A stretch of 64,000 bases of DNA from Candidatus Poribacteria bacterium (GTDB lineage Bacteria; Poribacteria; WGA-4E; WGA-3G): positions 3,776,001-3,840,000 of the forward strand of contig OZ240248.1 in the NCBI GenBank assembly GCA_965198235.1, read 5' to 3'. Of this stretch, positions 8,082 to 63,354 are shown piece after piece; within the stretch, counting starts at the first letter, position 1; every line of letters begins with the position of its first letter. The notes below the pieces were generated by a model. The model had not been told where the DNA came from. It saw only the letters and a program-made list of their open reading frames with translations, and made no database searches. The position numbers were made by a program, and so were the translations under genes.

Positions 8082-8915
8082 GTGAAAACCTTTATTTCAA
8101 GTTACACTACGATATTTTTTCTGTTAGTGACATGTGTCATTGCATTTGCTGGTGTTGTTGAGGATCCTGTGCTCTATCTCGATGCCTCTGACAACCCTGC
8201 TCATCCGAAGGCATGGGAGAACCTCGGTACCGAAGGCGGTGAATTGCTTGCCGCAGACAAACCAATGGAACTCGAAGAAGGCGAAATTAAAATTCCTACC
8301 CTCGGTATCGTCCAGCCGAACGTGAAGTATTACACCACCACGGATTCCCATCAGACCTTTGGCGGTCCACCCAAGAAAAATACCCCGCTATTTTTCGAGG
8401 ACTGGACCTTGGAGTTCCTCTGTAGGCGCAACGGTGACTTTTTTGTTGAAGAGCATCACTTCGTCGGTTTCCAGAATAGTCCAAGAGAGGGCAAGCAGGG
8501 GATTCGGCTTTGGTTCCGTCCATCGCCTCAGAATCTGGACATCTCTATCCATGCCAAGGGGACTAAGCAAGCCGTTCAACCCCTTAACATTACGCTTAAC
8601 CAAGGTGAATGGAACTGGATAGCAGTCGTCGGTACGAGCGGTAAGTCGATTGTGGCGTATCAAAACGGTAAAGAGGTTAGCAAGCAACCCGGTTTTGATT
8701 TCGATAAGAAAATACCGATAAACGACATCTCTATCGGTGCTAATTCTTGGGATGAACGCCGTCGGAATTTTAACGGTTCAATCGCTATCGTTCGAGTTTA
8801 TGATAAAGCACTGACCGCAGCGGAGATCAACGGGAATATTGATGGCGCGTTTGCTGTTGATCCGGCGGACAAACTCCCGACGACATGGGCACGCGTAAAG
8901 CGCGGCTATGAATAA
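8082..8915 (+). CDS. Secreted LamG/concanavalin-like domain protein with C-terminal V-D-P..KL..TW..K motif
   Basis: GTG start after GGAGGAG; signal peptide; FNGSIAIVRVYDKALTAAEI LamG end; tail AVDPADKLPTTWARVK. Confidence 0.8.
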   Translation: MKTFISSYTTIFFLLVTCVIAFAGVVEDPVLYLDASDNPAHPKAWENLGTEGGELLAADKPMELEEGEIKIPTLGIVQPNVKYYTTTDSHQTFGGPPKKNTPLFFEDWTLEFLCRRNGDFFVEEHHFVGFQNSPREGKQGIRLWFRPSPQNLDISIHAKGTKQAVQPLNITLNQGEWNWIAVVGTSGKSIVAYQNGKEVSKQPGFDFDKKIPINDISIGANSWDERRRNFNGSIAIVRVYDKALTAAEINGNIDGAFAVDPADKLPTTWARVKRGYE

Positions 8916-8966
8916 TAGCGCGCATATACCTCTGGGTCGCGACGCCTTTCTCTCCGCAAAGGTTTT

Positions 8967-8990
8967 GTAGGAGCTACCTCCTGATCGCGA
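8967..8990 (+). repeat. GTAG-type REP, family A (GTAGGAGC...TCGCGA); other copies 11540-11563, 16360-16383, 24895-24985 (interrupted), 55363-55386
   Basis: 24-nt GTAG-footed imperfect palindromes with shared ends. Confidence 0.75.
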
Positions 8991-9106
8991 CCCTTTCTCC
9001 TTTCGATATTGACTCTTACGGAAACAGAAATGTCTGGACCTTACCCTATTCGTCCGTCCCACTACCTTGTTCTGGATGATCGCCTCATTGACGTTGCATT
9101 CCGCCT

Positions 9107-10306
9107 CTACAACGTCCCGGCGTGCGCCCGAATCTTCTGGAACGCGTCTAAAATTTGTTGCATATCGCCTGTGTCCCCTAAGAACATGGAATGTCCAAAA
9201 CTACAGACCTCTTCTCTGTAGACTCGTTCTGCGTTCGGGCAATTGAGCGTGCTATAATCAATCGCCTGGTCCCCAAGGTATTTGCGTGGTAATCCGAGCC
9301 GATCAAACAGTTCGGGGTTGCCGAAAGGACCTTCGTTGTAAATGGGTTCACCATGCGCACCGACCCCACACGGAACACCTTCTGCGCGGAGTGCTTCTAA
9401 GAACCTGTCGCGTGAAACACCGCCGAATTCCTCAGATACAAACCGGAAATCCCAATAGTAGAAACACCATCGCGTGGCACGCGCATCGCGCGGGATCGGG
9501 TGGAGCCCATCTATCGCTTCCATGCCCTTGGAGAGATATGCAATATTCCGTTCGCGCGTCTCTACCTGCTCTTCAAACCGTTCCAATTGATTCAGTAAGA
9601 GCGTCGCTTGGAAGTTGGTCATCCGCATATTCAGCTGTGCGAATTGACCTGCCTTTTCTGCGAGTGTTTCATCGTTTGTCAGCACCATTCCGCCTTCGCC
9701 ACAGGTGAGCGTCTTTCCCATCTGGAAGCTGAATGCGCCGAGGTGTCCGATTGAGCCGAGTCCTTTTCCGCGCCATTGTGAACCGTGTGCGTGCGCACAG
9801 TCCTCAATCACTTTGAGATTGCGTCTTTCAGCAATCTCCATGATCGCGTCCATGTCTGCAGGGTAGCCGCCGTTATGCACAGGGATAATCGCCCGCGTTT
9901 GGGGCGTAATGGCTTTCTCAATCGCATCGGGTGCGATATTATAAGTAAGCGGATCGATGTCAACAATCACCGGCACGGCGTTGACACAGACAGCCGATGT
10001 CCCTGTCGCGACAAAAGTGAGCGCGGGGACGATCACCTCATCACCGGCACTGATGCCAGCAGCCTTTAGTGCGCATTGTAACGCCACAGTCCCGTTTGCG
10101 AGTGGAATCCCGTATTTCGCATCCTGAAACGCCGCGAATTTTTCACCGACTTCATCGACTTTCTCGCGTCGGTTCCACGCACCACTCCGCAAGGTCTCTA
10201 AAAGTGCGTTCTCTTCGGTTTCATCATAAATGGGCCAACTTTTCCCTAAACTTCCTTTGACGATAGGTTCACCGCCATTAAGTGCCAACTTGGTTTCCAT
10301 GTCCAT
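9107..10306 (-). CDS. DegT/DnrJ/EryC1/StrS PLP-dependent aminotransferase
   Basis: NGTVAL, DEVIVPALTF, IEDCAHAHG, FSFQMGKTLTCGEGG. Confidence 0.92.
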   Translation of the reverse strand: MDMETKLALNGGEPIVKGSLGKSWPIYDETEENALLETLRSGAWNRREKVDEVGEKFAAFQDAKYGIPLANGTVALQCALKAAGISAGDEVIVPALTFVATGTSAVCVNAVPVIVDIDPLTYNIAPDAIEKAITPQTRAIIPVHNGGYPADMDAIMEIAERRNLKVIEDCAHAHGSQWRGKGLGSIGHLGAFSFQMGKTLTCGEGGMVLTNDETLAEKAGQFAQLNMRMTNFQATLLLNQLERFEEQVETRERNIAYLSKGMEAIDGLHPIPRDARATRWCFYYWDFRFVSEEFGGVSRDRFLEALRAEGVPCGVGAHGEPIYNEGPFGNPELFDRLGLPRKYLGDQAIDYSTLNCPNAERVYREEVCSFGHSMFLGDTGDMQQILDAFQKIRAHAGTL

Positions 10307-10325
10307 GTCCCCCTTGCTATGTGCT

Positions 10326-10371
10326 GTAGGAGGGGTGTTTTTGCTTGGGTGTTTCCCCCAAGTAACCCCGA
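10326..10371 (+). repeat. GTAG REP family B (GTAGGAGGG..GTAACCCCGA) interrupted by the GGGGAAACACCCAAGCAAAAACAC module
   Basis: Arms match the uninterrupted copies at 5954-5977 and 38945-38968; insert matches those at 24904, 37501 and 55289. Confidence 0.7.
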
Positions 10372-10526
10372 TTTCCCTGATACAGATAGTTTGATTTTAG
10401 CAGTGCCTCCTTTTTTAGTCAACCTCTTTGATTTCGTTCGTATCGTAGTGTTTGTAGTATTCTTCTTGCGGATTTCGTCAGAATTCGCTATAGTAATCTT
10501 CGGAAACCCGAAACAGTGTGTAAACT

Positions 10527-13710: not shown

Positions 13711-13758
13711 AGGTTGATAGCTCCTATGTTATCTTTGTAGTAAAGCATAATTAGAAAA

Positions 13759-18543: not shown

Positions 18544-19443
18544 TTATCTCCGTCTTGCTTTGATATGACCCCAAGTAACGCTCAAATGGCTCGCTGAAGG
18601 ACTGACATCAAGCCCTGTAGCTTCCATGTTGTTCTGAACCTCTGCTGCACTCAGAACGCGATCGTAAATTCGGAATTCGTCAATATACCCCTGAATCGTA
18701 TCGCAATCGCATCCATCTGACCGATCCCCAATGCCGAGGAGAAGCCCTCCCTTTGAAATCTTACCGCCCTTCATGGCGTACTTTTTTTCCTGTTTTCCAT
18801 TCACATAATAGTGAACCGTTTTACCATCATAGGTGCCAGTGAGGTGCAGCCACTCTTCAAGTGGGATGTCCTCCAGTACATTGTCCTGTGCAGCCACCGT
18901 TGATTGGCCACCGGCTCTGACGAAGAAGCCGTGTTGGTTGTCGTCATCGTCATAGTAAAGGCTCGCGACTGCGCTGTTCGTTGGCATATCGTCGAGTGAG
19001 ATAATCCGATTCCAACTGTCATCCAAGGCGTTGACGTAGACCCAACATTCCAAGGAGATCTCCTCCCAATCCCGATCGATTTTCGGTGGGTTTGAATCTT
19101 CAACGAGGAATCGGTCAACACTCCCATCAAAAAGGATGCACTCGCCGACTTTGCAATCGGAGGCGGGTGCGAGTTCAGGGTCCCCCTTAACAGCGGCAGC
19201 GAGTCCTGACAGGAGATCTACCGCCTCGGTTTTGATCTTTACCGTGTCTTTGTCGAAGGACCAATAGGCGATTAAGCCATCTTCAACCGCTCCGACAATT
19301 GCATCGGTAGGTTGGGCATTCCATCCGAGGAACGCGATAAGGAGAAGGGCGAATGCGCGTTTGGCATTCGCAAAGACTGTAAAGAACCGTGAATTTTCCA
19401 CAAAATGTCTGCTCTGAAAACGGGCACCGTTTTTTAGACGCAT
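18544..19443 (-). CDS. Secreted LamG domain protein with C-terminal V-S-P...HL..TW..IK motif
   Basis: GLIAYWSFD, WLHLTGTYDG, GYIDEFRIYDRVLSAAEV; tail DVSPSASHLSVTWGHIK. Confidence 0.85.
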   Translation of the reverse strand: MRLKNGARFQSRHFVENSRFFTVFANAKRAFALLLIAFLGWNAQPTDAIVGAVEDGLIAYWSFDKDTVKIKTEAVDLLSGLAAAVKGDPELAPASDCKVGECILFDGSVDRFLVEDSNPPKIDRDWEEISLECWVYVNALDDSWNRIISLDDMPTNSAVASLYYDDDDNQHGFFVRAGGQSTVAAQDNVLEDIPLEEWLHLTGTYDGKTVHYYVNGKQEKKYAMKGGKISKGGLLLGIGDRSDGCDCDTIQGYIDEFRIYDRVLSAAEVQNNMEATGLDVSPSASHLSVTWGHIKARRR

Positions 19444-19571: not shown

Positions 19572-20966
19572 TTAAAACATGTCGCGCATGGCACGTTCAC
19601 GCCGATCCGCGATTTGACGTTCACGCTCCTCATCAGACTGCCGACCATGTGGTACAGCAATGATGGGTCGGTATTCGGCGACTTCGCTCTTGCGCTTGAA
19701 CACTCGGAAGAAGTCGAAACGGGTTAAGGTTGGCGGAATGTTCCCGGGACACAGTGAATGTACCCCAACATGCACCGAATTTCCCATGCCAACGTTGGTT
19801 TGCCCACAGCTTTTCCATTGAATGCCGTCGTCACTGGCGAAAGCGGAGAATTGGTTACCTCTACGTTCCATGCGTAAGAAGAGTTCTCGGACATTTCTAA
19901 GTCCACTGCTACGTCCGCGTAGATTAAATGAGCGTCCGACGTGGCGTTCAAATCGGACATCGCCTCTGAATGCGTGTGGTCCCGAGGTTTTTTCAAGTCT
20001 GAGGAATCGATTGGGATTTTTCCATACCAATAAGCCACCGTGTTCTTTCAGTTGTGGCGAGATTCGCATGCGAGTTTCAATAGCGAAGTCTCCAGCGACT
20101 TCCATGAGGAGACGGGGTGCACTCATATCGCCGCTTCTGCCGTCTGGACCGTGCCAAAGGTCTTGCCCGGGTTCAGTCCGCATTTCCAGATAGCCTTGGC
20201 GTTCTGCCCAGGAACCGCCGCCTTTCGGGTCGTCCCACCGCCATTCCGGACGCATACGGTTTCCGATGAACTCATCTTCAAATACCATCTCTGTGAACTC
20301 ACCAGAAGATGCCCATCCTTCAATCTTCACAGCGGAGATAGAATCTCCAAAGTTTTGGGGGAGTAAATGGAGGTTCGGCAACTCCTTTTTGTATTCCGAG
20401 GGTTCCATGCGTATGGGTAGAGGTGCCCCCTCAAAGTCAGGGTGTTCGTAAAAGACCACCTCCGCGCCATGTCGCGGGAAATCCGGTCCTTTGAAGATGC
20501 GGATTGACGAAATTCGGTCTTCAAACCAAGTACCACCTTGCGCATCCCGTAGGTTGGCGATATCGCGCAGAATGGTGATTTTTCTACCTCGGAATTCGAC
20601 GTGTTCGTAGCAATCCACAATCAGCGGGATAGTCCCCCACTCCGGTCCAACCACCTCCAGCGTGGAACCGAAGTTGATTGATGAGATTCTGTCGGCGAAG
20701 TTGTAAGCGGTGTCGTGCAGGTTCGGATAAAATCCGGGCCCGAGTGCTAACTTTTGACCGCGGAAATGGCGATGCTGGTAAAGGATGACTTTGTAATTCG
20801 GGTTCGACGAGAAGTTCGGACCCTTATAGACACGAACAGAAGAGATATTGTCTTGAAACCCGATGTCTCGTGTAAAGGGAACAGGCTCCACAACATATCC
20901 CATTCTGCCCCGGAAGTTTGTATGTTGGAACACCTCAACAACGAGGCGCGGTATGACGACTGGCAT
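19572..20966 (-). CDS. Beta/gamma-crystallin (four Greek-key motifs) fused to DUF1349/ConA-like domain
   Basis: Four [FY]xHxxFxG...D[NRS]IS[SA][VI] repeats; C-terminal DLW..APRL..GDF.IET..GL.VW..FLRLE pattern. Confidence 0.8.
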   Translation of the reverse strand: MPVVIPRLVVEVFQHTNFRGRMGYVVEPVPFTRDIGFQDNISSVRVYKGPNFSSNPNYKVILYQHRHFRGQKLALGPGFYPNLHDTAYNFADRISSINFGSTLEVVGPEWGTIPLIVDCYEHVEFRGRKITILRDIANLRDAQGGTWFEDRISSIRIFKGPDFPRHGAEVVFYEHPDFEGAPLPIRMEPSEYKKELPNLHLLPQNFGDSISAVKIEGWASSGEFTEMVFEDEFIGNRMRPEWRWDDPKGGGSWAERQGYLEMRTEPGQDLWHGPDGRSGDMSAPRLLMEVAGDFAIETRMRISPQLKEHGGLLVWKNPNRFLRLEKTSGPHAFRGDVRFERHVGRSFNLRGRSSGLRNVRELFLRMERRGNQFSAFASDDGIQWKSCGQTNVGMGNSVHVGVHSLCPGNIPPTLTRFDFFRVFKRKSEVAEYRPIIAVPHGRQSDEERERQIADRRERAMRDMF

Positions 20967-25261: not shown

Positions 25262-27235
25262 ATGAACCCTTTCAAAAAGAAGCATCGGGATTACAAATCC
25301 CTCCTACAGGGCGCGCAGATTCTCGTGACGCTTGCGGTGGCGATAGGCATGTTGTTCAGCATCACCCCCGAAGTAGATGGATTTATGGCGTTTGACCATC
25401 AGTCTCAACTTCCAGAGCATATGAGGAGAAAATTCAACAACCTCATCCGTCGGGTGCATAAGGATCAGTGGGTGATTGGCTATGCATACGCCGATCCTGA
25501 ATGGGGTGAACCTGCCGGGGTCTGCCCACCGGAGGCAAGACACAACGGCGCGGCGATTGAGGCAGCCATCACCGATGCCTTGCGCGCCTGGTTGCAGCCT
25601 GTCAAGGACTTGAACACCGGCAAACCCGTCGTCGATGACTTTCGCTATGTCCCGAACTTCGATGTGAGTAATGTGCCTGAGCTTAAGTTGTATGACCTGC
25701 GAATCGTTTTCTTCTGCGACGTTGACAAATCACGCGCATTGACAGGGTCAAGAGAGGCACATCCGCCACAGATCCACATGCACCGAGGCACAGATGTGGA
25801 CGAACGTTTCGAGTTTACCCTCCTGCACGAGATCGGTCATTCCTTCGGTTTACTGGATACCTATCGGAGACAGGAACTTACGCTCGAAGAACTCAGAGTC
25901 AGCAGGGGTGGCTTGCTTGCAACCATCGGACACCAACCCTCTTCGGTGATGTCCGGGCTGTACATCTCTCGCCCCGGTCCCAGACGCATCGCTCAGGACG
26001 ACGCAAACGGTATCGTTTGGCTCTATAAGTTCTATCACGAAAATCTGCCACTTGAAGATTGTATCTTCCCCGACTACGAGTTGGAGACATCTCCCGATGG
26101 GTGTCGTCCGAAGTCTCCACTCATCTTTGAAATCAAACATGGCCCTGATGAGCGCTTTGCGATCCAAGTTATTGAGCAGGATAGAAACACGGATGTCAAT
26201 GCCAAGGACGAAACGGGGTCAACGGCACTCCACCATGCGTTAGAAAAAGGGTATTCACGGCTGCTGGAGAAACTCTTGGTGCATTCAGACCTTGATGTGA
26301 ATGCGAGGAATGCCGAGGGAAGCACGGCACTGTTCTGGGCGGCAAAACGCGGGTCTTACGGTGTGACAGAGCGACTTCTGAAGCACAGGAAGATTGACGT
26401 GAACATCAGAAACACTGCTGGCACGACACCCCTGAAGGCAGCCGCAGCAGAAGAAAACGATCGCATCGTAGAGTTGCTTTTAGAACAGGAGCCCCGTGAA
26501 TCGGATTGGACAGGGGTTGATAAAACCGCTCCCGCACATCAGCGCTCGGTGTTTTACCTACTCCACGATCCGCGTCCATTGATTTTCCATGCGGGGTATC
26601 TGGGAACAGTCCTCGGGGGAGATGCGTTGTTCATTACACAGAAACGGGAAGACGCTTCCATAGAAAGTTATCTCAGCAAAGGAGACTTCACACTCGTGAG
26701 TCATTCGGGTGTCGTTGCGGAGAGTATCAAGATTCGGGAAATCGCATCGTTTCCCGGTGCGGACGGTGAAACAGGCAGCGTGCTTCTGGCAATCAGAGAC
26801 GTAGATCTCTCAGCGTATGAACCGTTACTGGTCTCAACAGACCCCATTCTCACAGAAACGGATGTCGAACTGCTGACGTATAAGTTTGGGTCGGGTATTG
26901 CGTTGAAAGGGAATGACAAAGATAACGCATTGAATCTTCCACTTCAGGTGCGTGCGTGTGTCTCGGTGCCGCATGTCGGGTTGGGTGCCAAAGGTTTATG
27001 GCAGCATACGTGTGGGCCTCCCAACAGCGTTGCGTCGGGGGCATTGCTATTCGATGAGAAGGACGGGATACTCATCGGTTTCTATACCGAACAGGAGGTC
27101 GAGGAGATTCTTGGAGACGGGCTTCCGCTTGCCAACAGTGTGTCTGAGGCGTTGATACGGCTTGTCGACGCCAAGCCGGTAAGTCCGAAAAACAGATTGA
27201 CGACGACATGGGCGGAAATCAAACAGGAGGACTGA
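25262..27235 (+). CDS. Secreted metzincin metalloprotease + 3 ankyrin repeats + degenerate trypsin-like domain + C-terminal motif (paralog 1)
   Basis: HEIGHSFGLLD and SVMSG Met-turn; DVNAKDETGSTALH ankyrins; tail PVSPKNRLTTTWAEIK; RBS CAGGAGA before ATG 25262. Confidence 0.85.
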   Translation: MNPFKKKHRDYKSLLQGAQILVTLAVAIGMLFSITPEVDGFMAFDHQSQLPEHMRRKFNNLIRRVHKDQWVIGYAYADPEWGEPAGVCPPEARHNGAAIEAAITDALRAWLQPVKDLNTGKPVVDDFRYVPNFDVSNVPELKLYDLRIVFFCDVDKSRALTGSREAHPPQIHMHRGTDVDERFEFTLLHEIGHSFGLLDTYRRQELTLEELRVSRGGLLATIGHQPSSVMSGLYISRPGPRRIAQDDANGIVWLYKFYHENLPLEDCIFPDYELETSPDGCRPKSPLIFEIKHGPDERFAIQVIEQDRNTDVNAKDETGSTALHHALEKGYSRLLEKLLVHSDLDVNARNAEGSTALFWAAKRGSYGVTERLLKHRKIDVNIRNTAGTTPLKAAAAEENDRIVELLLEQEPRESDWTGVDKTAPAHQRSVFYLLHDPRPLIFHAGYLGTVLGGDALFITQKREDASIESYLSKGDFTLVSHSGVVAESIKIREIASFPGADGETGSVLLAIRDVDLSAYEPLLVSTDPILTETDVELLTYKFGSGIALKGNDKDNALNLPLQVRACVSVPHVGLGAKGLWQHTCGPPNSVASGALLFDEKDGILIGFYTEQEVEEILGDGLPLANSVSEALIRLVDAKPVSPKNRLTTTWAEIKQED

Positions 27236-34263: not shown

Positions 34264-35010
34264 TTAGCCGTGAACGGCGTTAGCGAATGCCCTCATCAGT
34301 TCGAGGGATCCGTTTTCTTCAAGAATGTTACCTGTGACGATGAAGTCCGCACCGGCTTCTACCTTTTTAGCGGCAATTTCTGGGGTGCGGATGCCTCCAC
34401 CGACGATTAGCGGGATGCTGATTTGATTTTTCACTGTTGTGATCATCTCTTCTGGGACAGAGTGCACTGCGCCACTTCCTGCCTCCAGATAAACCATCTG
34501 CATGCCGAGATACTCTGCAGCCAATGCATGCGGTCCCGCAATGTCGGGTTTATCGCGTGGGATGGGCATTGTGCCACTCATAAATTCAACAGCGGTTTTG
34601 TTACCGCCTTCAATCAGCATGTAGCCAGTTGGAATGGGTTTAAGCGCGTGACGTTGTATCCACGGTGCCGCTTTGACCTGTTCGCCAATGAGATAGTTCG
34701 GGTTGCGTCCACTTATGAGACTGATATACAGAATCGCATCAGCGTGGGGGGTGAGGTGCATCGAATCGCCCGGAAATAGCACCAGCGGGAGTTCTGTTTC
34801 CTGCTTAAGGGCTTTCGCGATGAGGTGCAAATCGTTCGTTAAAAAACTGCCACCGAGCAAAATTGCGTCTGCACCCGCCTGCTCTATTTCGCGCGCAAGC
34901 TTGATGCATTTTTCAATTTCACACTGCTCCGGATCAATTAGAACGAAATAACCAGCATGGTGCTTTTTCAATACCTCGTGAAAGTAGTTAAGAACCCAAT
35001 TTGATCTCAA
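34264..35010 (-). CDS. Geranylgeranylglyceryl/heptaprenylglyceryl phosphate synthase (group II-like GGGPS)
   Basis: LIDP, LGGS, LFPG, SLISGRNPNYLIGEQV, YLEAGSGA, VGGGIR. Confidence 0.9.
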   Translation of the reverse strand: MRSNWVLNYFHEVLKKHHAGYFVLIDPEQCEIEKCIKLAREIEQAGADAILLGGSFLTNDLHLIAKALKQETELPLVLFPGDSMHLTPHADAILYISLISGRNPNYLIGEQVKAAPWIQRHALKPIPTGYMLIEGGNKTAVEFMSGTMPIPRDKPDIAGPHALAAEYLGMQMVYLEAGSGAVHSVPEEMITTVKNQISIPLIVGGGIRTPEIAAKKVEAGADFIVTGNILEENGSLELMRAFANAVHG

Positions 35011-36350: not shown

Positions 36351-37195
36351 AGAAACGTTCCGAGATAGATTGCGCCGAGTCCGACGAATATATCCCACTT
36401 CATCCAACGTTGAATGGACGCACAACTTTCTCTGGAGGCATCTTGACACAGACGAATTGCCAAACCGATTAGCACCACATCAACACCGATTAAGACGACA
36501 AGCAAGTAGTGCCATGAATACCAACCGAATAAATATGGAATGGGGCTAAACAGAATAACAGATGCCATGAAACCAATGGCTGTCCGGACTGCAATCCGTG
36601 GATTGAGCGTAGCAAGCGTTTTCGCGTTATTTTTCAGGTCCCCTTCTGTGTCCTCAAGGTCTTTGACGATTTCCCGCGCTGTCGTGAACAAAAAGGCGAA
36701 GATTGCTGGAATGAGTGTGCCTTGCACTGAATCTATCGCTACACCGCCAGCAATGAAGGTTAAACCCGTTAATCCGCTGACGACTAAATTGCCGACAAAA
36801 GGGGTGCGTTTCAACCAGAAAGCATAGCTTACAAGTGCAACGAACACAAAGATGGCAATACCTGTAGCATTTCTATTAATAAGAGCCCCCAACCAGATGC
36901 CGATTACGGTAAGTACTATCGCAAAAATTAGTGCATCGGTACGCCGAATGCGTCCAGAAGGTAGCGGGCGCCGCGGGCGATTGATTCGGTCAATGTTGTA
37001 ATCACAGTAATCGTTTATGGCGTTTCCTGCGGAAAGCAAGACAAGCGCGGAGACAGAAACCAACAGAAGTCGGATATTGGCAAGGTTTTCCATGTTCCCT
37101 TGGCTGGCAAACATCCCACCGAGCCATGCAGAGATGAAGGCGATAATTCCGTTAAGTGGACGCGCCAACTCAAGATACGCGATCAATGTCTTCAT
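36347..37195 (-). CDS. UbiA-family digeranylgeranylglyceryl phosphate synthase (DGGGPS-like)
   Basis: LELARPLN, AGNAINDYCDYNIDRINRPRRPLPSGRI, AREIVKDLEDTEGD. Confidence 0.85.
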   Translation of the reverse strand: MKTLIAYLELARPLNGIIAFISAWLGGMFASQGNMENLANIRLLLVSVSALVLLSAGNAINDYCDYNIDRINRPRRPLPSGRIRRTDALIFAIVLTVIGIWLGALINRNATGIAIFVFVALVSYAFWLKRTPFVGNLVVSGLTGLTFIAGGVAIDSVQGTLIPAIFAFLFTTAREIVKDLEDTEGDLKNNAKTLATLNPRIAVRTAIGFMASVILFSPIPYLFGWYSWHYLLVVLIGVDVVLIGLAIRLCQDASRESCASIQRWMKWDIFVGLGAIYLGTFL

Positions 37196-47571: not shown

Positions 47572-48676
47572 TTATTTCTGCTGAGCCTTCATTTTGAGGT
47601 AGCTTTCGATGAAGGGGTCTAAAGCACCATCCAACACAGCGTTAACATTACCCGTTTCGACATTTGTGCGCAAATCCTTGACGCGTTGGTACGGGTGCAG
47701 GACGTACGACCGAATTTGGCTCCCAAAGTTAATTTCTAAGCGTTCGCTTCGCTGCTTTGAAAGTTCTGCCTCCCGTTCCGCACGATATTTCTCATGAAGA
47801 CGGGAACGGAGTAATTTCATAGCGATTTCTCGGTTCTTATGCTGCGAACGTTCATTCTGGCATTGGACGATAATTCCGGTGGGTTTGTGTGTAATCCGAA
47901 CTGCTGAATCTGTGACATTGACGTGCTGCCCACCCGCACCGCTCGCGCGATAGAAATCTATCCGTAAGTCTTCGGATTGAATATCCACTTCCACGGTGTC
48001 GTCGATTTCAGGGGTCACGTCGATAGCGGCGAAGGAGGTATGCCGCCGCTTGTTGAAATCGTAGGGGGATAACCGAACGAGCCTATGCACGCCCGCTTCT
48101 GCTTGAAGATAACCGTAAGCCGAAGCACCTGTAACGAGGATTGTTGTGCCTTTGATGCCGGCTTCGTCCCCTGCGGTGAGGTCTACGATTTCGGTCTGAT
48201 AGCCGCGCCGGTCGCACCAACGGAGGTACATACGCATCAACATCCCCGCCCAATCCTGTGCGTCAATCCCGCCAGCACCAGAGTGAATGTTGAGGATTGC
48301 GTTGTTCTCATCAAATTCACCCGTTAGCATTAAGCGGAGTTCCATCTGTTCGAGATCTCGTGTGACAGTGTCCAATCCGTCGGCAATCTCGTTTTGGAAA
48401 CTCCCATCGTTCTCTTCGGTCGCGAGTTCGAGCAGGGTTTGGATATCTTCAACTTTGAGAGCGAGGTCTTCGTACGCCCCAATTTCATCTCGGAGGATGG
48501 AGATTCGTTGGTTAACTTGTTGAACGCGTTGCGTATTGCTCCAAAAATCAGGAGCAATTGTCGCCTCTTCAAGTTCTGTTAATTCTTTTCGTTTTTCAGC
48601 CAGGTCAAAGATAACCTCTGAGTTCTTGGAGGCGGGTCTGCATCTCTTCAGCCTGGTTTTTTAAATCTACAAGCAT
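47572..48676 (-). CDS. prfB: Peptide chain release factor 2 with programmed +1 frameshift
   Basis: ATG at 48676, AGAGGT-TAT-CTT-TGA-C slippery site at 48604-48619; the +1 frame joins the ORF containing SPY and GGQ motifs. Confidence 0.96.
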
Positions 48677-50626: not shown

Positions 50627-52813
50627 CTAAAAAAGATCTGTCTTCAATAAGTGCGAGACTTTGATAAATACAATCCGCTCAGTGTCTCCTTCTACGGTAC
50701 GATTGTCGTTGTAGACGATAAAAAGATTGCTTTCAGGGCGGTATTCATAAGCGAAGAGCGCGAAGACCCGGCGTTCTTTTTCTAACGTGAATTCTGCACT
50801 GGCTCTCGCATACATACGCTGCGCAAACTGATAGTTCACGACAAAGCGACGCGTCCATTCGGAGAGTTCCCACGCTGTTGCATCGGGTTGTTTTTCATGG
50901 AGCCGCTGCAAGATGAACTCAAAACTGAGTTTGGCAGTCGGACGAATTGTGATTTCGGGACGGAGAAAGAAGGTGTCTTTATTATCACGGACACCGAAAC
51001 GTCCGGTGTTTCGGATCTGCACGTATTTGGGGGGGAACCATCCCATAAAGAACCGCGCGGTTCTATCTGTAAAGGGTTTGTTATCCTCATTAACGTGATA
51101 ATACCATTCGGGCCCGACGAGGAAAAAGAAGTCTTTAACGCTGAGGAGACTGCTAAAACTTGCCCTATGGTTTGTCAATTCACCTGCGTGGTTCGCGAGT
51201 CGTTCGTATTCGACTTCACCGCGAAGCCGTTCAACAGTGCCTTTGTACTGTTTATTATAGCGACTTCTGATCATTAATCCACGTCTACCCACGCGCGGGA
51301 CGAAGCCGGTTTCGGGGTTAAAGTGCTCCCCGATATCTGCGTAGATCGCATCTAACGAGAACACATTTGTCCGACGGGCAAGTTGGACAAAGACAAGGTC
51401 GTCCTCGGTGCTTTCTGCCATATCCAGACCCCCTGCTTTCCATTCTCTTGCGTATTCCAGATTAAGACTCGTAGCGGCGGGGAGTTGAATGCGTGCATCA
51501 AGTCCGCCTGCTCGATCGTAGATGGCACCGCGTTGTTTGTTAACGCCTAAAAACCCGACAGATGACGTTTTTCCAACTTCCCGTTGCAATCGCAAAACGG
51601 AGTAGTTATAGTTCGCGAGGGGCAATTCACCTATTGCTATTTCTCTATCAGGGTTTTCCGATCCCGCAACGGCTCCCACGAAAGCGAGATTGTACTTATT
51701 GAATTTCCCGATGACCTTTCCACCACCGAGCAGCGCTTCGACTTTTCGGCTGTAGAACAGGTCAAGCGGCATTTGAAAGAGTTCGTTTCCCTCGAGGAAA
51801 AACGGGCGTTTTTCAGGAAAACGGAGTGGGATATCGGTGAGATTCACGAGGTCGGGATCCGCCTCAATTTGTGCAAAATCTGGATTTATCGTCAGATCAA
51901 CGGTGAAGTCGGCGATCGGATACCGGATGTCTAACCCAAGGTCCGGTTTCACTGCGGCTGATGTTTCACCATCTCGCGGTTGCAGGACTTGTGGCTTTAG
52001 TGTGCCATACGGTTTGAACTTCACCGGTCGTTTGGTAACCAAACCTGAAATGGGAAGGTCTGTCAGATGTCCGAATTCTGAGACAGCGTACTGGCGTTCA
52101 CCCAAATCTGCCCAGGTCTGTTCTTCGGCGGGTGATTCGTCGTTTCGCCAAAAGTTGATACCCCAGGTTGCTGTTTCCATCCCTTTTGAAAATCGGAGTT
52201 CGGCAAACGGAATGGCGAATTCTGCTGTCCAGCTGTCTGTTCCTTTTGCGGCTTGACCTTGCCAGTCGCAATCCCATGATATGGCGGTGCCGATCATAGA
52301 CTGCCCCGTGCGCCTATTCGCGCCTTCGTTAATCAAGCGTCGATCGGTTTGTGTGCCGAGTGGGTTTAAGGCGAATGCATAACAGTTTCTGCCATCAAGG
52401 AAGGTATCGATTAAAACTTCAACGTGATCATCGGAAAAGAAGAAGGAGTCGCGCCGCGTTAGATTCGCTGCGAGCTTGTTCATGTCGGTCTTAAAGCATT
52501 CAAAGGCGACATAGAGGTTATTGGCATCGTAAGCGAGGTAGATAGTCGTTGGTTGTGTTGCTGGCTCACCCCGCTGTGGTTCAAATTGAATTAACTCACC
52601 GGTTTTGGCACTATTTTGCCAGCAGGTGTCGTCCAATTTCCCATCAATTTTTGGAGGTGTTTCTGTGCGGACTACTTTAATCGCGCGGTTCGTGAGAATT
52701 TCGGGGGCCTCGTCATTCGTGTCTGCAGGCAATACCTTAAGGCTCCACAAACAGAGGATGAGGTAGACTGCTAATATCAAATACGGGCTAAGCCGTGCCC
52801 TAATTGTTCGCAT
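50627..52813 (-). CDS. CBM9-like sugar-binding domain + DUF5916 outer-membrane beta-barrel protein
   Basis: PKIDGKLDD..W, WTAEFAIPF.ELRF, TINPDFAQIEAD, PEKRPFFLEG, FYSR; signal peptide. Confidence 0.8.
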   Translation of the reverse strand: MRTIRARLSPYLILAVYLILCLWSLKVLPADTNDEAPEILTNRAIKVVRTETPPKIDGKLDDTCWQNSAKTGELIQFEPQRGEPATQPTTIYLAYDANNLYVAFECFKTDMNKLAANLTRRDSFFFSDDHVEVLIDTFLDGRNCYAFALNPLGTQTDRRLINEGANRRTGQSMIGTAISWDCDWQGQAAKGTDSWTAEFAIPFAELRFSKGMETATWGINFWRNDESPAEEQTWADLGERQYAVSEFGHLTDLPISGLVTKRPVKFKPYGTLKPQVLQPRDGETSAAVKPDLGLDIRYPIADFTVDLTINPDFAQIEADPDLVNLTDIPLRFPEKRPFFLEGNELFQMPLDLFYSRKVEALLGGGKVIGKFNKYNLAFVGAVAGSENPDREIAIGELPLANYNYSVLRLQREVGKTSSVGFLGVNKQRGAIYDRAGGLDARIQLPAATSLNLEYAREWKAGGLDMAESTEDDLVFVQLARRTNVFSLDAIYADIGEHFNPETGFVPRVGRRGLMIRSRYNKQYKGTVERLRGEVEYERLANHAGELTNHRASFSSLLSVKDFFFLVGPEWYYHVNEDNKPFTDRTARFFMGWFPPKYVQIRNTGRFGVRDNKDTFFLRPEITIRPTAKLSFEFILQRLHEKQPDATAWELSEWTRRFVVNYQFAQRMYARASAEFTLEKERRVFALFAYEYRPESNLFIVYNDNRTVEGDTERIVFIKVSHLLKTDLF

Positions 52814-52991: not shown

Positions 52992-54989
52992 TCACTCCAC
53001 TCGTTTGATTTCTGCCCAGGTTGTCGTCAACCTGTTTTTCGGACTGACGGGTTTTGCGTCGACAAGGCGTATAAGTGCCTCAGAGACGACATCGGCAAGC
53101 GGCAACCCATCCCCGAGAATCTCATCGCTCTCCTGCGACCTATAGAAACCGAGGATCGTTCCTGTCTTCTCATGAAATAAAATGGAGCCGTCCGAGACGC
53201 TGTTCGCAGGTCCGCAGGTGTGCTGCCAGAGATCCAATGCTCCCAATCCCGCATGCGGCACGGAGACACACCTCCGCACCCGAAGCGGTAATGCCAACGC
53301 CTCACCCTGATCCGCTCCTTTCAGCATAATCCCCGAACCGAACTTATACGTCAATAACTCTACATCCGTCTCCCTTAAGTTCGGATACAATGACAACGCA
53401 AGCGGGGCATACCCCGAGAAGTCTACATCTCGGATTGCCAAAAGCACGCTCCCTGTCTCGCCATTGCCACCCGGAAACGATGCCAACGTCCTCACCTTGA
53501 CATCCTCGGCAACCAACCCATCATACCCCACCAGAGAAATATCATCTTGATCGAGGAACTGCTCTACGCTATTTTCTTCTCGTTGCTGTGCGATGAACAA
53601 TGCGTCTCCACCCAGCACCGTTCCGAGATATCCAGCGTGGAAAAGCCGTGATTGGTCGGGACCCGGCACCAGCAGATAAAACACAGAGCGATAATTCGCA
53701 ATCGAGGTCGCGTCTATCTCCCGCCACGCAGCTTCACGCGGTTCCTGCGTCAGTAGCAACTCCACGATACGTTTGTTTCCCTGTGTTACCGCTTCCTTCA
53801 GGGGTGTGTTGCCACCCGCACCCCTGATATTTACGTCAACCGCCTTGTGCTTGACGAGCCGTTCCGCTGCACCGTAAGACCCACGCGTCGCCGCCCAGAA
53901 CAACGCCGTGCTTCCCTCCGCATCTTTCGCGTTGACCTCAATATCCTTATGCCAAAGAAGCTTCTCCATCAGTTTTGGATACCCTTTCATCGCCGCATAA
54001 TGCAGTGCCGTCAAACCCGTCTCGTCTCTGGCGTTGACATCGGTGTTTTCATCTTCATCGATGACCTTGATAGCCATCATGGCCTCAGTGTTGTGTTTAA
54101 TTTCAAAGAGAAGCGGAGACTTCGGACGACACCCATCGGGAGATGTCTCTAACTCATAATCAGGGAAGATACAATCTTCGAGGGGCAGATTTTCGTGATA
54201 GAACTTGTAGAGCCAGACGATCCCGTTGGCATCATCCTGACTGACGCGGGTGGGAAGAGGAGGCGGGACGTTGCCACCCGCCATCACCGAAGCGGGTTGG
54301 TGACCGATCGTTCTATCCAGTCCTCCCCTACTGACTCTTAATTCTTCCGCCTCTCGCCTCAGTATTATATACGTGTCCCCTAAACCGAAGGCGTGACCGA
54401 TCTCGTGCAGGAGAGCGCCTGAAAATCTTGGATCCACATCCGTGCCCTCACGCATATTAAGTGCTGGGGGGATCGCCATATCCACCCCTACCAACGCAAC
54501 CGATCTCCCAGCCTTGCAGAAGAAAAAGATTCTCAAGTCATATAACTGAAGTTTAGCCGTATCTTTGACGAAAATTCCATTCTTATCCTTGATGAGAACT
54601 TCAGCCCCGTCTCTTATGAAAAAATTCGGCACAAAGCGAAAGTCAGAGACGACGGGTTTGCCGGTATTCAAGTCCCGGACGGGTTGTAACCATGCGTTCA
54701 AGGCTTGGGTGATGACTTCCTCTATCGCCTCACCGTTGTGTCTTGCCTCCGGTGGGCAATCGCCCATATACGCATAGCCAATCACCCACTGATCCTTATG
54801 CACACGACGGATGAGGTTGTTGCGTTTTCCTATGAATTCTTCTCTGGTTCTATGGTCAAACGCCCTAAATCCGTCCGCTGTGGGGGCACTGCTGAACAAC
54901 ACGCCTATCGCCACCGCAAGCGTCAGGAGCATCTGCGCGCCTTGTAGGAGGGATTTGTAATCCCGATGCTTCTTTTTGAAAGGGTTCAT
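52992..54989 (-). CDS. Secreted metzincin metalloprotease + ankyrin repeats + degenerate trypsin-like domain + C-terminal motif (paralog 2)
   Basis: HEIGHAFGLGD, SVMAG; ankyrins; long blocks identical to 25262-27235. Confidence 0.85.
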   Translation of the reverse strand: MNPFKKKHRDYKSLLQGAQMLLTLAVAIGVLFSSAPTADGFRAFDHRTREEFIGKRNNLIRRVHKDQWVIGYAYMGDCPPEARHNGEAIEEVITQALNAWLQPVRDLNTGKPVVSDFRFVPNFFIRDGAEVLIKDKNGIFVKDTAKLQLYDLRIFFFCKAGRSVALVGVDMAIPPALNMREGTDVDPRFSGALLHEIGHAFGLGDTYIILRREAEELRVSRGGLDRTIGHQPASVMAGGNVPPPLPTRVSQDDANGIVWLYKFYHENLPLEDCIFPDYELETSPDGCRPKSPLLFEIKHNTEAMMAIKVIDEDENTDVNARDETGLTALHYAAMKGYPKLMEKLLWHKDIEVNAKDAEGSTALFWAATRGSYGAAERLVKHKAVDVNIRGAGGNTPLKEAVTQGNKRIVELLLTQEPREAAWREIDATSIANYRSVFYLLVPGPDQSRLFHAGYLGTVLGGDALFIAQQREENSVEQFLDQDDISLVGYDGLVAEDVKVRTLASFPGGNGETGSVLLAIRDVDFSGYAPLALSLYPNLRETDVELLTYKFGSGIMLKGADQGEALALPLRVRRCVSVPHAGLGALDLWQHTCGPANSVSDGSILFHEKTGTILGFYRSQESDEILGDGLPLADVVSEALIRLVDAKPVSPKNRLTTTWAEIKRVE

Positions 54990-55532: not shown

Positions 55533-56657
55533 GTGTGCCTTTTTATACGCAAAATCTTTATACTGCTTTTATGTCTTGCCATCTTTTTCCCCGGGGTGGC
55601 GCTTGCGGGACCCGGTCGGACAGGCGCGCAAATCTTGAACCTCGGTGGTGGCGCACGGGCGAGAGCACTCGGCGACGCGTTTTCTGCGATGTCCGGGGAT
55701 GTAACCACGACGCTCTGGAACCCAAGTGGTCTGGCAGATATGCCCGAAAGTAAATTCCGTTCTGGCAGAAAAGCGGCACAAGCCTCAATGTTTTATACAG
55801 ATTACAGCGCGCCTTTCGGAGAAGCAGGGGAAGGGTTATACTATACCTTCATCTCTGGCGCGATGCCACTCGGCGATGCCGGAACTATCGGCGCGACTCT
55901 CCAGATGCAAGGGCAGGGTACGATTGCTGTAACGACTGATTCCCCCGAAGTGCTTCGTGAGGAAAGTCTCGGCACCAACTTCGCGTTGACGTTCTCATAC
56001 GCCGACCGCATCACAGAGTCTTTATCGGCAGGAATCAACGGCAAAATGATTCGGATGGTGCTCGGACGTGAGAATGGAAGTTCTTATGCAGTTGATTTCG
56101 GAATGCAATATCTCCTTCCCTACGACCGCATCCCTACAACCTTCGGTGCCGCAATTCAGAACGTCGGCCCGGGTATCTCTTTTATTGATGAAAACCAAGC
56201 AGATCCCTTACCGCGGTTTTTGCGGATAGGTACTTCGATGAGCCTTTATCGGGCGAAGTATCACCACATTCGCCTCGTCAGCGGTATCACGGCTTATGTC
56301 GATAAATTGGCAGAGGATGAAAACGAATTAGCCGTTGATTTGGACCGGCTTAACGCCGAAAGAGAGGAAAAACTGACCCGAGAGCAACTGCTTTCCGATC
56401 GCGGGGTCGGTATCCGAGCATTTGAGTGGCGACACCTTCAAAAGAATCTCGGTTTGGAGTATTGGCTCGGTAACTTGCTCGCAATTCGGGTCGGCTATAA
56501 AGTTGAACCCGGTATTAACCTACCGAATTTAACGGATTATTTTACCGGGGGTATCGGTGTGAAGGTATACTTATTCAATCTCGATTTGAGTTACGGCCCC
56601 AGTTTCGGTCCGAACAATCAACGACTTATTGAGGCAACAGGGATAATCGTCTTTTAA
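55533..56657 (+). CDS. PorV/PorQ (UPF0164)-like outer-membrane beta-barrel
   Basis: Signal peptide then GAQILNLGGGARARALGDAFSA..D.....WNPSGLA; DPLPR.LR.G; GLEYW; C-terminal F. Confidence 0.8.
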   Translation: MCLFIRKIFILLLCLAIFFPGVALAGPGRTGAQILNLGGGARARALGDAFSAMSGDVTTTLWNPSGLADMPESKFRSGRKAAQASMFYTDYSAPFGEAGEGLYYTFISGAMPLGDAGTIGATLQMQGQGTIAVTTDSPEVLREESLGTNFALTFSYADRITESLSAGINGKMIRMVLGRENGSSYAVDFGMQYLLPYDRIPTTFGAAIQNVGPGISFIDENQADPLPRFLRIGTSMSLYRAKYHHIRLVSGITAYVDKLAEDENELAVDLDRLNAEREEKLTREQLLSDRGVGIRAFEWRHLQKNLGLEYWLGNLLAIRVGYKVEPGINLPNLTDYFTGGIGVKVYLFNLDLSYGPSFGPNNQRLIEATGIIVF

Positions 56658-56806: not shown

Positions 56807-57634
56807 ATGAAATTTAACGCCGAAATTATAATACTTGTGTTAATATTCTCTCTGTTGTCTAATATTTGCCTCGCTGCTGATAGCCTTCAGGCGCGACCGT
56901 TCACAGCTTTCTATCTCGATTCTGCGCTCGGAAGCCGGACGCTCACGGACCAATCCACTGTTGTTATGGAGGCGACCCAAGAGCTCCAGTCCCGGAAATC
57001 TCCAAACGAAGCGTTCCTTTATTCGCTCGTCATTCCCGGTATGGGACAACTCTATACAGGTGCGAAACGTGGTTATCTCTACGCCGCTGCAGAGGTCGGT
57101 TTGCTCGCGACCTATTTTGTTCTCCGAAACAATGCCACAAACACTCGAGAAAACTATCGCGATGTCGTCAGACAAAACGTTACTTTTATCGGTCCAGGCT
57201 CCTTTGAGGATTGGGATCCTATAGAGGATTTTGAACACGCCACACAATATGAAACATGGAACCACGACTATGATACGAAGAAGACCCAAAAGCGTACCGG
57301 CAAGTGGTATTGGGCGGATCTTGATCCAGACCTAAAAAACGAGAAACATAGAGATCTTGAGAAGAGCGATATTACTTCAAAATACCGATTGGAGGCCTTT
57401 AATTTGAGAGAAAAAGCCAACAATACTTTTGAACGCGCGAAATTCTTTTTGGGCTTGGCAATTTTGAACCATGTTGTGAGTGCAGTGGAAGCACGGATTA
57501 CAACCAAACGTTTCAATACCCACTTGCAAAGGACGTTGACACAGACACGAGTCAATACTCTTGAAATAGATTTACAAACTGACATGACGGCGGGGGCACT
57601 CACAGGTGCGCTCGTCCTACGGAAAAGGTTTTAA
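56807..57634 (+). CDS. Secreted/outer-membrane hypothetical protein (DUF5683-like)
   Basis: Signal peptide; KSP..AFLYSLVIPGMGQLY.G; NHVVSAVEA; ends in F. Confidence 0.6.
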   Translation: MKFNAEIIILVLIFSLLSNICLAADSLQARPFTAFYLDSALGSRTLTDQSTVVMEATQELQSRKSPNEAFLYSLVIPGMGQLYTGAKRGYLYAAAEVGLLATYFVLRNNATNTRENYRDVVRQNVTFIGPGSFEDWDPIEDFEHATQYETWNHDYDTKKTQKRTGKWYWADLDPDLKNEKHRDLEKSDITSKYRLEAFNLREKANNTFERAKFFLGLAILNHVVSAVEARITTKRFNTHLQRTLTQTRVNTLEIDLQTDMTAGALTGALVLRKRF

Positions 57635-58744: not shown

Positions 58745-59335
58745 ATGACAACACGGGCAGTTCAAACATATCTCACGCCAGAGGAGTACATCACTTTAGA
58801 ACGCAAAGCGATACCTGATGCTGAAACAGTCAGAAGCGAATACATCAATGGAGAGATTATCAAAATGCCCGGAGCCAGTTTCGCACATAATTTGATGACT
58901 AACAATATCTCTGGTGAACTCCGCGCTCGCTTGAAGGGCAGTGAGTGTGCTGTTTTCGCGAATGACATGCGTATCAGCATTCCCACAGCAAAATCCTATT
59001 TTTATCCTGATGTTGGCGTTGTCTGTGAGGAACCCCGTTTTGAAGACGATGTCTTTGACACGCTTCTGAACCCGATTGTCATCGTAGAGGTGCTTTCACC
59101 TTCAACCGAAGCGTATGACAGAGGTGAAAAATTCGCCCACTATCGCCAAGTCACATCGTTGCAGGAATACGTCCTTGTGGCCCAAGACCAGATTCGTGTT
59201 GAACACTACCGCCGTCAAGAAAGGCAGTGGATTTTTACCGATTTTGAAAAACATGATGCGATTCTGTTGCTTCCTTCCATCCAGTGCGAATTACCCTTGC
59301 GGGAAATCTACGAACGCGTTACATTTTCTGATTAG
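58745..59335 (+). CDS. Uma2/DUF820 family endonuclease-like protein
   Basis: SEYINGEI..M.GAS..HN, YPDV.VVC, VEVLSPSTEAYDRGEKF..YR...SLQEYVLV. Confidence 0.92.
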   Translation: MTTRAVQTYLTPEEYITLERKAIPDAETVRSEYINGEIIKMPGASFAHNLMTNNISGELRARLKGSECAVFANDMRISIPTAKSYFYPDVGVVCEEPRFEDDVFDTLLNPIVIVEVLSPSTEAYDRGEKFAHYRQVTSLQEYVLVAQDQIRVEHYRRQERQWIFTDFEKHDAILLLPSIQCELPLREIYERVTFSD

Positions 59336-59375
59336 AAACGCTACAACGCAAATTACATGAAGTGAGATCTCCACT

Positions 59376-61088: not shown

Positions 61089-61101
61089 AGGGAATTTTTA
61101 T

Positions 61102-62238: not shown

Positions 62239-62358
62239 TTCCAATTCGCTCACATCACAAATACCTTCCAAGCCACCCACCAAAATTTGTAGACATCAAC
62301 TTATAATCCTGTTATACTATCCTCACAAACGAATAGGAAGTGAATTTGATGCAAGCAC

Positions 62359-62582
62359 GTAGGTTGGGTTGAACGGAACATCAAAAAGCATGGCATTTGG
62401 CGTAGAAACCTGCAATTTCCAAAATGCTTGAAGTTTCAGAGACATTAGTGAAACCCAATTTTCAGTACTCTGTTGTGAAAGTGTTGGGTTTCACTATGTA
62501 TATTTTAGACGAGAGCCTACTGAAAAGTATCAACTTTCTTGATATTGATACCCTTTCGCCTTCCCCGTTCAACCCAACCTAC
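62359..62582. repeat. REPIN/MITE-like inverted doublet with 18-bp terminal inverted repeats
   Basis: GTAGGTTGGGTTGAACGG ... CCGTTCAACCCAACCTAC; inner IR AGTGAAACCCAA/TTGGGTTTCACT. Confidence 0.8.
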
Positions 62583-62625
62583 AAGACCAGATTACAAATC
62601 TCACGTAACATAGGAGGAATCGGTT

Positions 62626-63354
62626 ATGAAACTGGTTAAATCGGTCCTATTGATTGCACTGCTTTGTGTTGTCAGTCTTTTTTCGGCAGGAATCGCTGTT
62701 GCATTAGAAGAATGGATACATGTTGATATAGAACCGTATTCCAACACGAAGTTGGTTAAACATCAGTGGTGGACGAAGAATCCTGGGGATAGTACGCTTT
62801 CTCGTCTGCCCATCGGTGAGATTGATGAGTTTGAAGGACCGGACGGGAAGGTAGAGTTTAAAATTATAGATGGTGCCATTGTTCTCTTCGGCACCAATGC
62901 AGCGATATGGCCCAAAGCGGTTGAAGACATCGTCATTGGCGGTAAGGCAAAGTTCATCTATTTTTTTCACGCGACCGGATGGGAACAGAACGGCGTTCCA
63001 AGTTACATTTTCGTGATGAATTATCGGACTGGAAAGAAGGAAGAGCTTGAAATGATTTCAGGTTTTAACTCAGATGATTGGTGCCACGAGGATGCCGCAC
63101 TTAAAGACGATAACTCTGTCTGGGGATGGGTAAAGAAGGAAGGCGGTCCTTGTGGACACGCAGGGTTGGTTACCACAAAATGGGAAAACCCGCGACCCGA
63201 TGATTGGATTGAAACGATAGATGCCATCTCGTTGGAATTAGGGTCAGTGCCTGTGATTCCAGCGATTACCTTAGGCGAGGCATCACTCGCAGTTGACCCT
63301 GCCCAGAAATTGGCTGTCACTTGGGGAAGTCTGAAAAGCCCTCGTAGATTCTAA
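62626..63354 (+). CDS. Secreted beta-sandwich hypothetical protein with C-terminal V-D-P..KL..TW..LK motif
   Basis: RBS AGGAGG; signal peptide; IYFFHATGW, WENPRPD; tail AVDPAQKLAVTWGSLK. Confidence 0.8.
   Translation: MKLVKSVLLIALLCVVSLFSAGIAVALEEWIHVDIEPYSNTKLVKHQWWTKNPGDSTLSRLPIGEIDEFEGPDGKVEFKIIDGAIVLFGTNAAIWPKAVEDIVIGGKAKFIYFFHATGWEQNGVPSYIFVMNYRTGKKEELEMISGFNSDDWCHEDAALKDDNSVWGWVKKEGGPCGHAGLVTTKWENPRPDDWIETIDAISLELGSVPVIPAITLGEASLAVDPAQKLAVTWGSLKSPRRF

Follow-up and report, generated by a model that had tools for sequence, protein, structure and literature searches.

We analysed a 64,000-nt stretch of a Candidatus Poribacteria genome (assembly GCA_965198235.1, contig OZ240248.1, positions 3,776,001-3,840,000; hereafter the window), in which five genes encode proteins of differing architecture that end in the same short C-terminal sequence, hereafter the tail. 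The source of the window is a diderm, because BamA, Skp/OmpH, LpxD, Lnt and LolCDE-like genes are encoded in it, and all homologues that bear names belong to Candidatus Poribacteria. A first-pass annotation, made by reading the sequence, had given the tail the consensus V-[DS]-P-x(2-3)-[KRH]-L-x-[TV]-T-W-[AG]-x-[ILV]-K followed by 3-5 residues, and had described its carriers as two LamG proteins, two protease-ankyrin proteins and one further protein. The five open reading frames (ORFs) translate to tails exactly as written there, the consensus holds in five of five, and Pfam confirmed the identities of the proteins.

The five proteins are called cargos 1 to 5 below, and their positions and C-termini are given in Table 1. 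The ORF of cargo 1 opens at an ATG at 7992, and the GTG start at 8082 is backed by the matching start of an orthologue (P0046). The tail of cargo 2 is almost identical in ~100 orthologues. The two zincin and ankyrin paralogues, cargos 3 and 4, lie ~26 kb apart, and in both of them no Pfam family covers the ~230 residues that separate the tail from the ankyrin repeats.

Table 1. The five cargo genes, their tails and a tentative reader gene; HMM, score with the profile hidden Markov model of the tail
Feature	Position in window	Strand	C-terminal residues	Evidence
Cargo 1: signal peptide + Laminin_G_3 + tail	8082..8915	+	AVDPADKLPTTWARVK then RGYE	Pfam match, N-terminus heuristic, AlphaFold2 model
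Tail of cargo 1	8856..8912	+	VDPADKLPTTWARVK + RGYE	HMM 32.2 bits
Cargo 2: signal peptide + Laminin_G_3 + tail	18544..19443	-	DVSPSASHLSVTWGHIK then ARRR	Pfam match, N-terminus heuristic
Tail of cargo 2, variant with one additional residue	18547..18606	-	VSPSASHLSVTWGHIK + ARRR	HMM 26.9 bits
Cargo 3: signal peptide or anchor + zincin-like HExxH region + ankyrin repeats + family-less C-terminal domain + tail	25262..27235	+	PVSPKNRLTTTWAEIK then QED	
Tail of cargo 3	27179..27232	+	VSPKNRLTTTWAEIK + QED	HMM 30.5 bits
Cargo 4: zincin (HExxH) + ankyrin paralogue of cargo 3	52992..54989	-	PVSPKNRLTTTWAEIK then RVE	67% identity
Tail of cargo 4	52995..53048	-	VSPKNRLTTTWAEIK + RVE	HMM 29.5 bits
Cargo 5: signal peptide + jelly-roll/CBM-like beta-sandwich, no Pfam family, + tail	62626..63354	+	AVDPAQKLAVTWGSLK then SPRRF	
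Tail of cargo 5	63292..63351	+	VDPAQKLAVTWGSLK + SPRRF	HMM 39.2 bits
Tentative candidate reader: PorV/PorQ-family outer-membrane barrel	55533..56657	+		Divergent neighbour of cargo 4

The tail is a C-terminal peptide under purifying selection

A six-frame regular-expression search for the core [TVS][TS]W[AGS].[ILVM]K returned exactly five matches in the window, each 3-5 residues before the stop, and a degenerate DNA pattern of the fixed-spacing motif matched the window four times, compared with 0 matches in 100 dinucleotide-preserving shuffles. As the first-pass annotation had proposed, the tail was modelled as an HMM, which we built from 139 tails and ran with filters off on each of the window's 1,216 stop-to-stop frames; only the five tails scored clearly (26.9-39.2 bits, E-values from 2e-11 to 2e-7), the next frame reaching 5.3 bits (E ~1). 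The DNA pattern was also run over one genome per species from 185,579 species. In the resulting loci from other genomes, 135 of 137 unique core motifs sit 1-8 residues (mode 3) from the stop, the two exceptions being a chance match in Enterococcus and one tail with a 12-residue extension, and 149 of the 151 unique HMM matches over these 348 kb of loci finish at the frame end. When the tail profile, which is agnostic to position and family, was compared with 1.84 billion representative proteins, 543 clusters matched at E <=0.001. In 142 of the best 150 of these clusters the motif lies 1-8 residues from the C-terminus, and the remaining 8 are short fragment ORFs of 37-119 residues. A 40-residue query made from the tail alignment retrieved, among the matches listed, mostly LamG and ankyrin orthologues, and gave little information on cargo diversity. 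The first-pass annotation had itself raised the doubt that the motif might be equally frequent at internal positions or in cytoplasmic proteins; it proved to be strictly C-terminal and to occur on exported-type proteins.

The scan of 185,579 species gave at least 132 loci, of which, as listed, 122 are labelled Poribacteria, 9 come from four metagenome-assembled genomes (MAGs) labelled 'uncultured bacterium' and 1 comes from Enterococcus innesii. By our own arithmetic, which supposes a uniform base composition, ~70 chance matches are expected over the whole collection, and the Enterococcus innesii match is regarded as one because it stands in a 15-codon frame, 23 residues to the stop. The GC content of the Poribacteria-labelled loci spans 36-63%, and the tail is therefore not limited to one Poribacteria clade. 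Tail cargo genes often stand in tandem arrays. On one contig of an unlabelled MAG (63-65% GC), for example, at least four tail genes follow each other consecutively (loci L039-L042); their cargos are LamG proteins and PD40 propellers of ~290-366 residues, and their tail is slightly different, reading V-S-P-x-G-K-L-G-T-T-W-A-x-L-K-G-x.

The consensus derived from the collected tails consists of a linker rich in Gly/Asp/Glu/Ser, the motif [LTF]-[APS]-V-[ED]-P-x-x-K-L-[ATS]-T-T-W-[GA]-x-[LI]-K and 1-8 mostly basic or polar residues. The Lys at the fourth position after the Trp is found in 134 of 135 tails, the final K being one of the positions (V, P, K/R, L, T-W, G/A and final K) that the DNA pattern imposed on most of the sampled tails; the preferences at -12, -11, -9, -6 and -3 are free of this constraint. 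None of the five window tails lacks this Lys, and the family of cargo 5 (P0005) keeps it almost without exception. The 1-8 residues that follow it are variable and enriched in Arg/Lys, with a mean net charge of +0.77. Among 60 LamG cargos that share ~17-22% identity, tail residues make up four of the five invariant columns, and in the cargo 5 family the tail is kept down to 51% identity, its Trp being invariant and the residue before the Trp drifting. The tail is thus better conserved than the cargo domains. In the tail codons the third positions are nearly free (entropy at four-fold sites 1.7-2.0 bits, pairwise identity 0.37), whereas the first and second positions are fixed, and selection therefore acts on the peptide and not on the DNA. 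The tail is real and non-random, and it is under strong purifying selection.

In the AlphaFold2 model of cargo 5, blocks of the beta-sandwich (residues 28-221) have predicted local distance difference test (pLDDT) scores of 92-98 and those of the tail have scores of 56, 52 and 37; Foldseek placed the domain among jelly-roll and CBM-like folds. In the model of the LamG cargo 1 the last 15 residues (263-277) fall below a pLDDT of 50. In 134 tails the best 19-residue Kyte-Doolittle window within the last 25 residues does not exceed 0.81, with a median of 0.01, and the remark made from the sequence beforehand that the tail lacks a transmembrane (TM) helix agrees with this maximum. The remark that it is far shorter than a type IX secretion system (T9SS) C-terminal domain (CTD) also stands, the tail having ~20 residues and such CTDs ~70-100. 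No family covers the tail in the five window cargos (NCBIfam, E <=10; Pfam, E <=1), nor in 79 locus cargos or 42 representative proteins (E <=0.001), and a comparison of the tail profile with PDB sequences gave merely two partial matches at chance level (E 0.24 and 0.64). A match to an already characterised domain, the other doubt raised at the outset, was thus found in none of Pfam, NCBIfam and the PDB sequences, and no description of the tail motif was found among the titles and abstract openings listed in a literature search of limited journal coverage.

The tail is carried by diverse proteins with export-type N-termini

The tail occurs on about a dozen unrelated cargo folds. The 79 complete locus cargos comprise 46 Laminin_G_3 proteins, 4 CBM9, 2 CBM_4_9, 2 3-keto-disaccharide-hydrolase-like proteins, 3 PD40 propellers, 1 DUF3108-like protein, 1 protein with a weak lectin match and 20 without a family. 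The 42 representatives of at least 180 residues are divided into 16 LamG proteins, 6 Kelch and 2 PD40 propellers, 4 3-keto-disaccharide-hydrolase-like proteins, one each with ankyrin, F5/8 type C and DUF4960 domains, and 11 without a family; the window contributes the zincin and ankyrin combination as a further type. Most of the cargos are small single-domain binders of ~240-300 residues.

Signal-peptide-like N-termini were seen, by a hydrophobicity heuristic of our own, in 5/5 window cargos, as the first-pass annotation had it, and in 74/79 complete locus cargos (79/84 together). The five locus cargos that failed have implausibly long N-terminal extensions and resemble over-extended starts. 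A lipoprotein signal on the cargos was considered and rejected, loose lipobox-like matches being found in 7 of 79 and mostly lying within the hydrophobic core. The tail was absent from the cytoplasmic proteins of the window, as had been noted, and from all of the 44 other window proteins examined. Seven further window proteins have signal-peptide-like N-termini and no tail, namely ZnuA, a DsbH-like protein, Skp, BamA, a DUF5916/CBM9 protein, a PorV-like barrel and a DUF5683 protein, and the last four of them terminate in Phe. With five tail-bearing and seven tail-less exported proteins, the tail is therefore confined to a part (5 of 12) of the exported set of the window. Adjoining cargo 2 there is a 464-residue protein (19572-20966, -) with beta/gamma-crystallin and DUF1349/GH43_C2 concanavalin-like domains, which has neither a clear signal peptide by the same heuristic nor a tail.

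A proposed sorting function, its possible reader and its alternatives

On balance we favour reading the tail as a C-terminal sorting peptide specific to the Candidatus Poribacteria lineage, which probably directs Sec-exported proteins across or onto the outer membrane. The Sec pathway would export the cargo by means of its N-terminal signal peptide, whose presence is taken from the heuristic and whose use is presumed, and the cargo domain would then fold in the periplasm and leave the tail exposed and, as the low model confidence in two folds suggests, unstructured. Some envelope machine may read this linear tail via its invariant Trp and the Lys that follows at the fourth position, upon which the protein would be carried across the outer membrane or be held on it. 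The range of cargos, with lectin-like and carbohydrate-binding modules, beta-propellers, ankyrin and Kelch proteins and a zincin protease, would fit a role at the surface or outside the cell, toward the sponge matrix and host.

A PorV/PorQ-family outer-membrane barrel, encoded divergently next to cargo 4, is by analogy the most concrete candidate for the reader of the tail, though a tentative one that we regard as having a minor chance. It scores 189.8 bits with NF033709 (cut-off 90) and 28.8 bits with PF19572 (cut-off 27), thereby reaching both. The best 120 homologues listed are 84-95% identical to it, and the named ones among them come from Poribacteria, several being called 'PorV/PorQ family protein'. 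In the ESM Atlas the clusters nearest to it bear the names PorV or PorQ, the commonest phylum in each being Bacteroidota, Calditrichota or Balneolota among the few members with a known phylum. To our knowledge, no function of PorV/PorQ-family barrels outside Bacteroidota has been described, though no search aimed at this was made. Around cargo 4 the barrel forms part of a cluster of outer-membrane type, together with a CBM9 and DUF5916 protein (50627-52813, -) and a DUF5683 protein (56807-57634, +); all three have a signal peptide-like start and a Phe at the end.

The neighbourhoods of the cargo genes were surveyed in 110 of 197 non-cargo frames of at least 170 residues, which were hand-picked from the 150 longest and from which the Enterococcus locus (L015), antisense or overlapping frames and the shortest frames were left out. 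The neighbours include sulfatases, FGE-sulfatase, PhyH and TPR proteins and MocA oxidoreductases; the 110 frames, from the flanks of loci L001-L080, contain 8 TPR proteins, 7 PhyH-family dioxygenases and 4 FGE-sulfatase enzymes. Proteins with both cohesin and dockerin domains adjoin tail cargo in two Poribacteria genomes (L005:2106-3767, -, and L058:1-1014, +).

Two other features of the window lie apart from the cargo genes. The prfB gene for release factor 2 (47572-48675, -) has a canonical +1 programmed frameshift site, CTT TGA C, at ~48611-48605, with an AGAGG Shine-Dalgarno-like element a few bases upstream, and the listed ORF therefore appears N-terminally truncated. A gene for a PcrB-family protein, a family that includes geranylgeranylglyceryl-phosphate synthases (34264-35010, -), stands two genes from one for a UbiA-family prenyltransferase (36347-37195, -); this pairing resembles the archaeal-type ether-lipid synthesis genes reported in some bacterial phyla.

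Several points weigh against a sorting function in the form proposed here. The sorting signal inferred in the first-pass annotation fared well in every prediction that could be tested on sequences, but no machinery gene was recurrently linked to the cargo genes among the 110 of 197 neighbour frames, and the same frames contained no PorV/Q, C25-type peptidase, sortase or exosortase. The PorV-like gene adjoins just one of the five window cargos, and under the equivalog cut-offs the barrel falls well short of both PorV (NF033710, 100.4 bits against 250) and PorQ (NF033711, 71.2 against 220). The positions imposed by the DNA pattern inflate the apparent invariance of the motif in the locus sample. 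The restriction of the tail to Poribacteria is a strong tendency among the listed loci rather than a full census, because the loci number at least 132 and the 543 clusters carry no taxonomy. The low pLDDT of the tail means low confidence of the model and is not proof of disorder, and both AlphaFold2 models draw a low-confidence helix there. The signal-peptide calls come from our heuristic and not from a dedicated predictor. Finally, the exit of these proteins from the periplasm is a prediction drawn from sequences and models, and a cleavage or modification of the tail is conjectural.

Other roles for an exposed, conserved C-terminal peptide can be considered. The tail might be a docking or tethering tag that acts after export and has no part in crossing the outer membrane, plugging modules non-covalently into a common scaffold, a receptor or an envelope glycan as dockerin does with cohesin. 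That many binding modules share one exposed, linear and modular peptide would be expected here just as for a sorting signal, and most cargos are indeed small single-domain binders; scaffold logic also exists in Poribacteria, as the cohesin and dockerin proteins beside tail cargo (2 of the 110 neighbour frames) indicate. Yet a docking tag would still need an outer-membrane route, none being otherwise evident for the tail proteins, neither Dockerin_1 nor any other Pfam family matched over the tail, and no partner family was found, so that we think this role unlikely. We rate as more doubtful still, and quite improbable, that the tail is a signal for processing or quality control, a site at which a tail-specific protease or an enzyme of maturation or of covalent attachment would act on proteins that stay in the periplasm. 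The exposed C-terminal position on Sec-exported proteins is in keeping with such a signal, and the Gly/Asp/Ser-rich linker just upstream might be a cleavage site, but the tail is missing from those window proteins that clearly belong to the periplasm or the outer membrane, and the cargos, being lectins, CBMs, Kelch and ankyrin repeats and a protease, are of types characteristic of the cell surface or of secreted proteins. It would moreover be odd for a degradation signal to be strongly conserved over 543 clusters, and the last residues of the tail vary, unlike in signals that read the free C-terminus.

The dominance of LamG among the cargos (46 of 79 and 16 of 42) raises the thought that the tail belongs to the structure of a single family, for instance as the last LamG strand, and was inherited without any signalling role. 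This is very improbable, since the same tail is found on beta-propellers, CBM9, CBM4/9, ankyrin, zincin, F5/8-C and family-less folds, lies outside the confident domain in two unrelated folds and is better conserved than the LamG domain itself. Recurrence at gene ends might recall an element of the DNA or RNA, be it a repeat, a terminator or a mobile-element end, whose translation is accidental, and the low-confidence helix of the models a microcompartment encapsulation peptide on cytoplasmic enzymes, encapsulation peptides being short terminal helices, but the nearly random third and fixed first and second codon positions and a motif that is always in frame with a long ORF speak against the former, the signal peptides and lectin-like rather than cytoplasmic-enzyme character of the cargos speak against the latter, and the chance of either is practically negligible.

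New envelope machinery has repeatedly been found by way of C-terminal sorting signals, sortases, exosortases and the type IX system being examples. The tail marks a large share of the exported proteins of an uncultured phylum, with 5 of 12 in the window and 543 matching clusters, and would offer a simple sequence rule to predict the surface or secreted set of Poribacteria, including the ankyrin and Kelch proteins long suspected of acting on the sponge host. It is a defined peptide bait for finding a receptor, and it provides a testable link to the widespread PorV/PorQ-family barrels.

Comparison with known sorting signals

Membrane-anchored sorting signals are like the tail in being short, conserved, lineage-restricted C-terminal motifs on diverse exported cargo; they include the signals of sortase, exosortase and rhombosortase (LPXTG, PEP-CTERM, GlyGly-CTERM and relatives), in which the motif is separated from a basic cluster by a hydrophobic TM helix. 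With its V-E-P start and its basic end the tail is superficially like PEP...RR. We rejected this class for the tail, as 134 tails have no TM helix and no NCBIfam sorting-signal model matched at E <=10. The beta-signal of outer-membrane proteins, which is read in the periplasm, similarly occupies the very C-terminus; it has a terminal aromatic residue and belongs to beta-barrel proteins, and the barrels encoded in the window do end in Phe. It was rejected too, only 21 of 134 tails ending in F/Y/W and the cargos being soluble beta-sandwiches, propellers and repeat proteins. Likewise, dockerin was rejected, for Dockerin_1 matched no cargo and the same model found true dockerins in two neighbouring genes.

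The closest likeness is to the T9SS. T9SS cargo bears a Sec signal peptide plus a C-terminal signal (PMC12618676), and the CTD is a compact seven-stranded (3+4, beta1-beta7) Ig-like sandwich whose integrity is needed for secretion (PMC11285876). The same study describes a 'motif C-t.' with a conserved Lys a few residues from the end, which tolerates a short extension and reads KLIKK in Tannerella forsythia (PMC11285876). In a structural study a near-invariant Lys is the sole conserved CTD residue that touches the substrate-bound translocon, at PorV (PMC10994853), and a 2016 survey placed the T9SS in Bacteroidetes only (PMC4793230). Tail cargo similarly combines a Sec-signal-like N-terminus with a C-terminal element on diverse, scattered cargo genes, and the Lys of the tail stands near the C-terminus with a short variable extension, as in 'motif C-t.'; a PorV/PorQ-family barrel is also encoded in the same Poribacteria genome. 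The tail differs in having ~20 residues of low model confidence directly after complete cargo domains and in matching none of the curated CTD models of Pfam/NCBIfam. Without a folded Ig-like sandwich it is therefore not a T9SS CTD. The T9SS core comprises the SprA/Sov translocon, PorK/L/M/N and the PorU signal peptidase; of T9SS-type components the PorV/PorQ-family barrel alone turned up in the 64-kb window and the 348 kb of loci, no whole-genome search having been made.

A short unstructured peptide that guides a Sec-exported protein to an outer-membrane channel, as the tail would do, also has a parallel in curli secretion, where the N-terminal 22 residues of CsgA are read by the CsgG channel. 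The CsgA signal is N-terminal, belongs to one cargo family and has a known channel, whereas the tail is C-terminal and is found on hundreds of families. The tail thus fits none of the described structural classes of sorting signal, having neither a membrane helix nor a folded domain. It is conceivable, though we would not expect it, that in Poribacteria a linear peptide of 20 residues is by itself enough to signal export across the outer membrane, with a stand-alone PorV/PorQ-family barrel or some other unrecognised envelope machine as its reader and with no canonical T9SS; if so, this would be how the sponge symbiont brings its lectins and its eukaryote-like ankyrin and Kelch proteins to the matrix of the host, and the system would be either a minimal type IX relative or a secretion pathway of a new kind.

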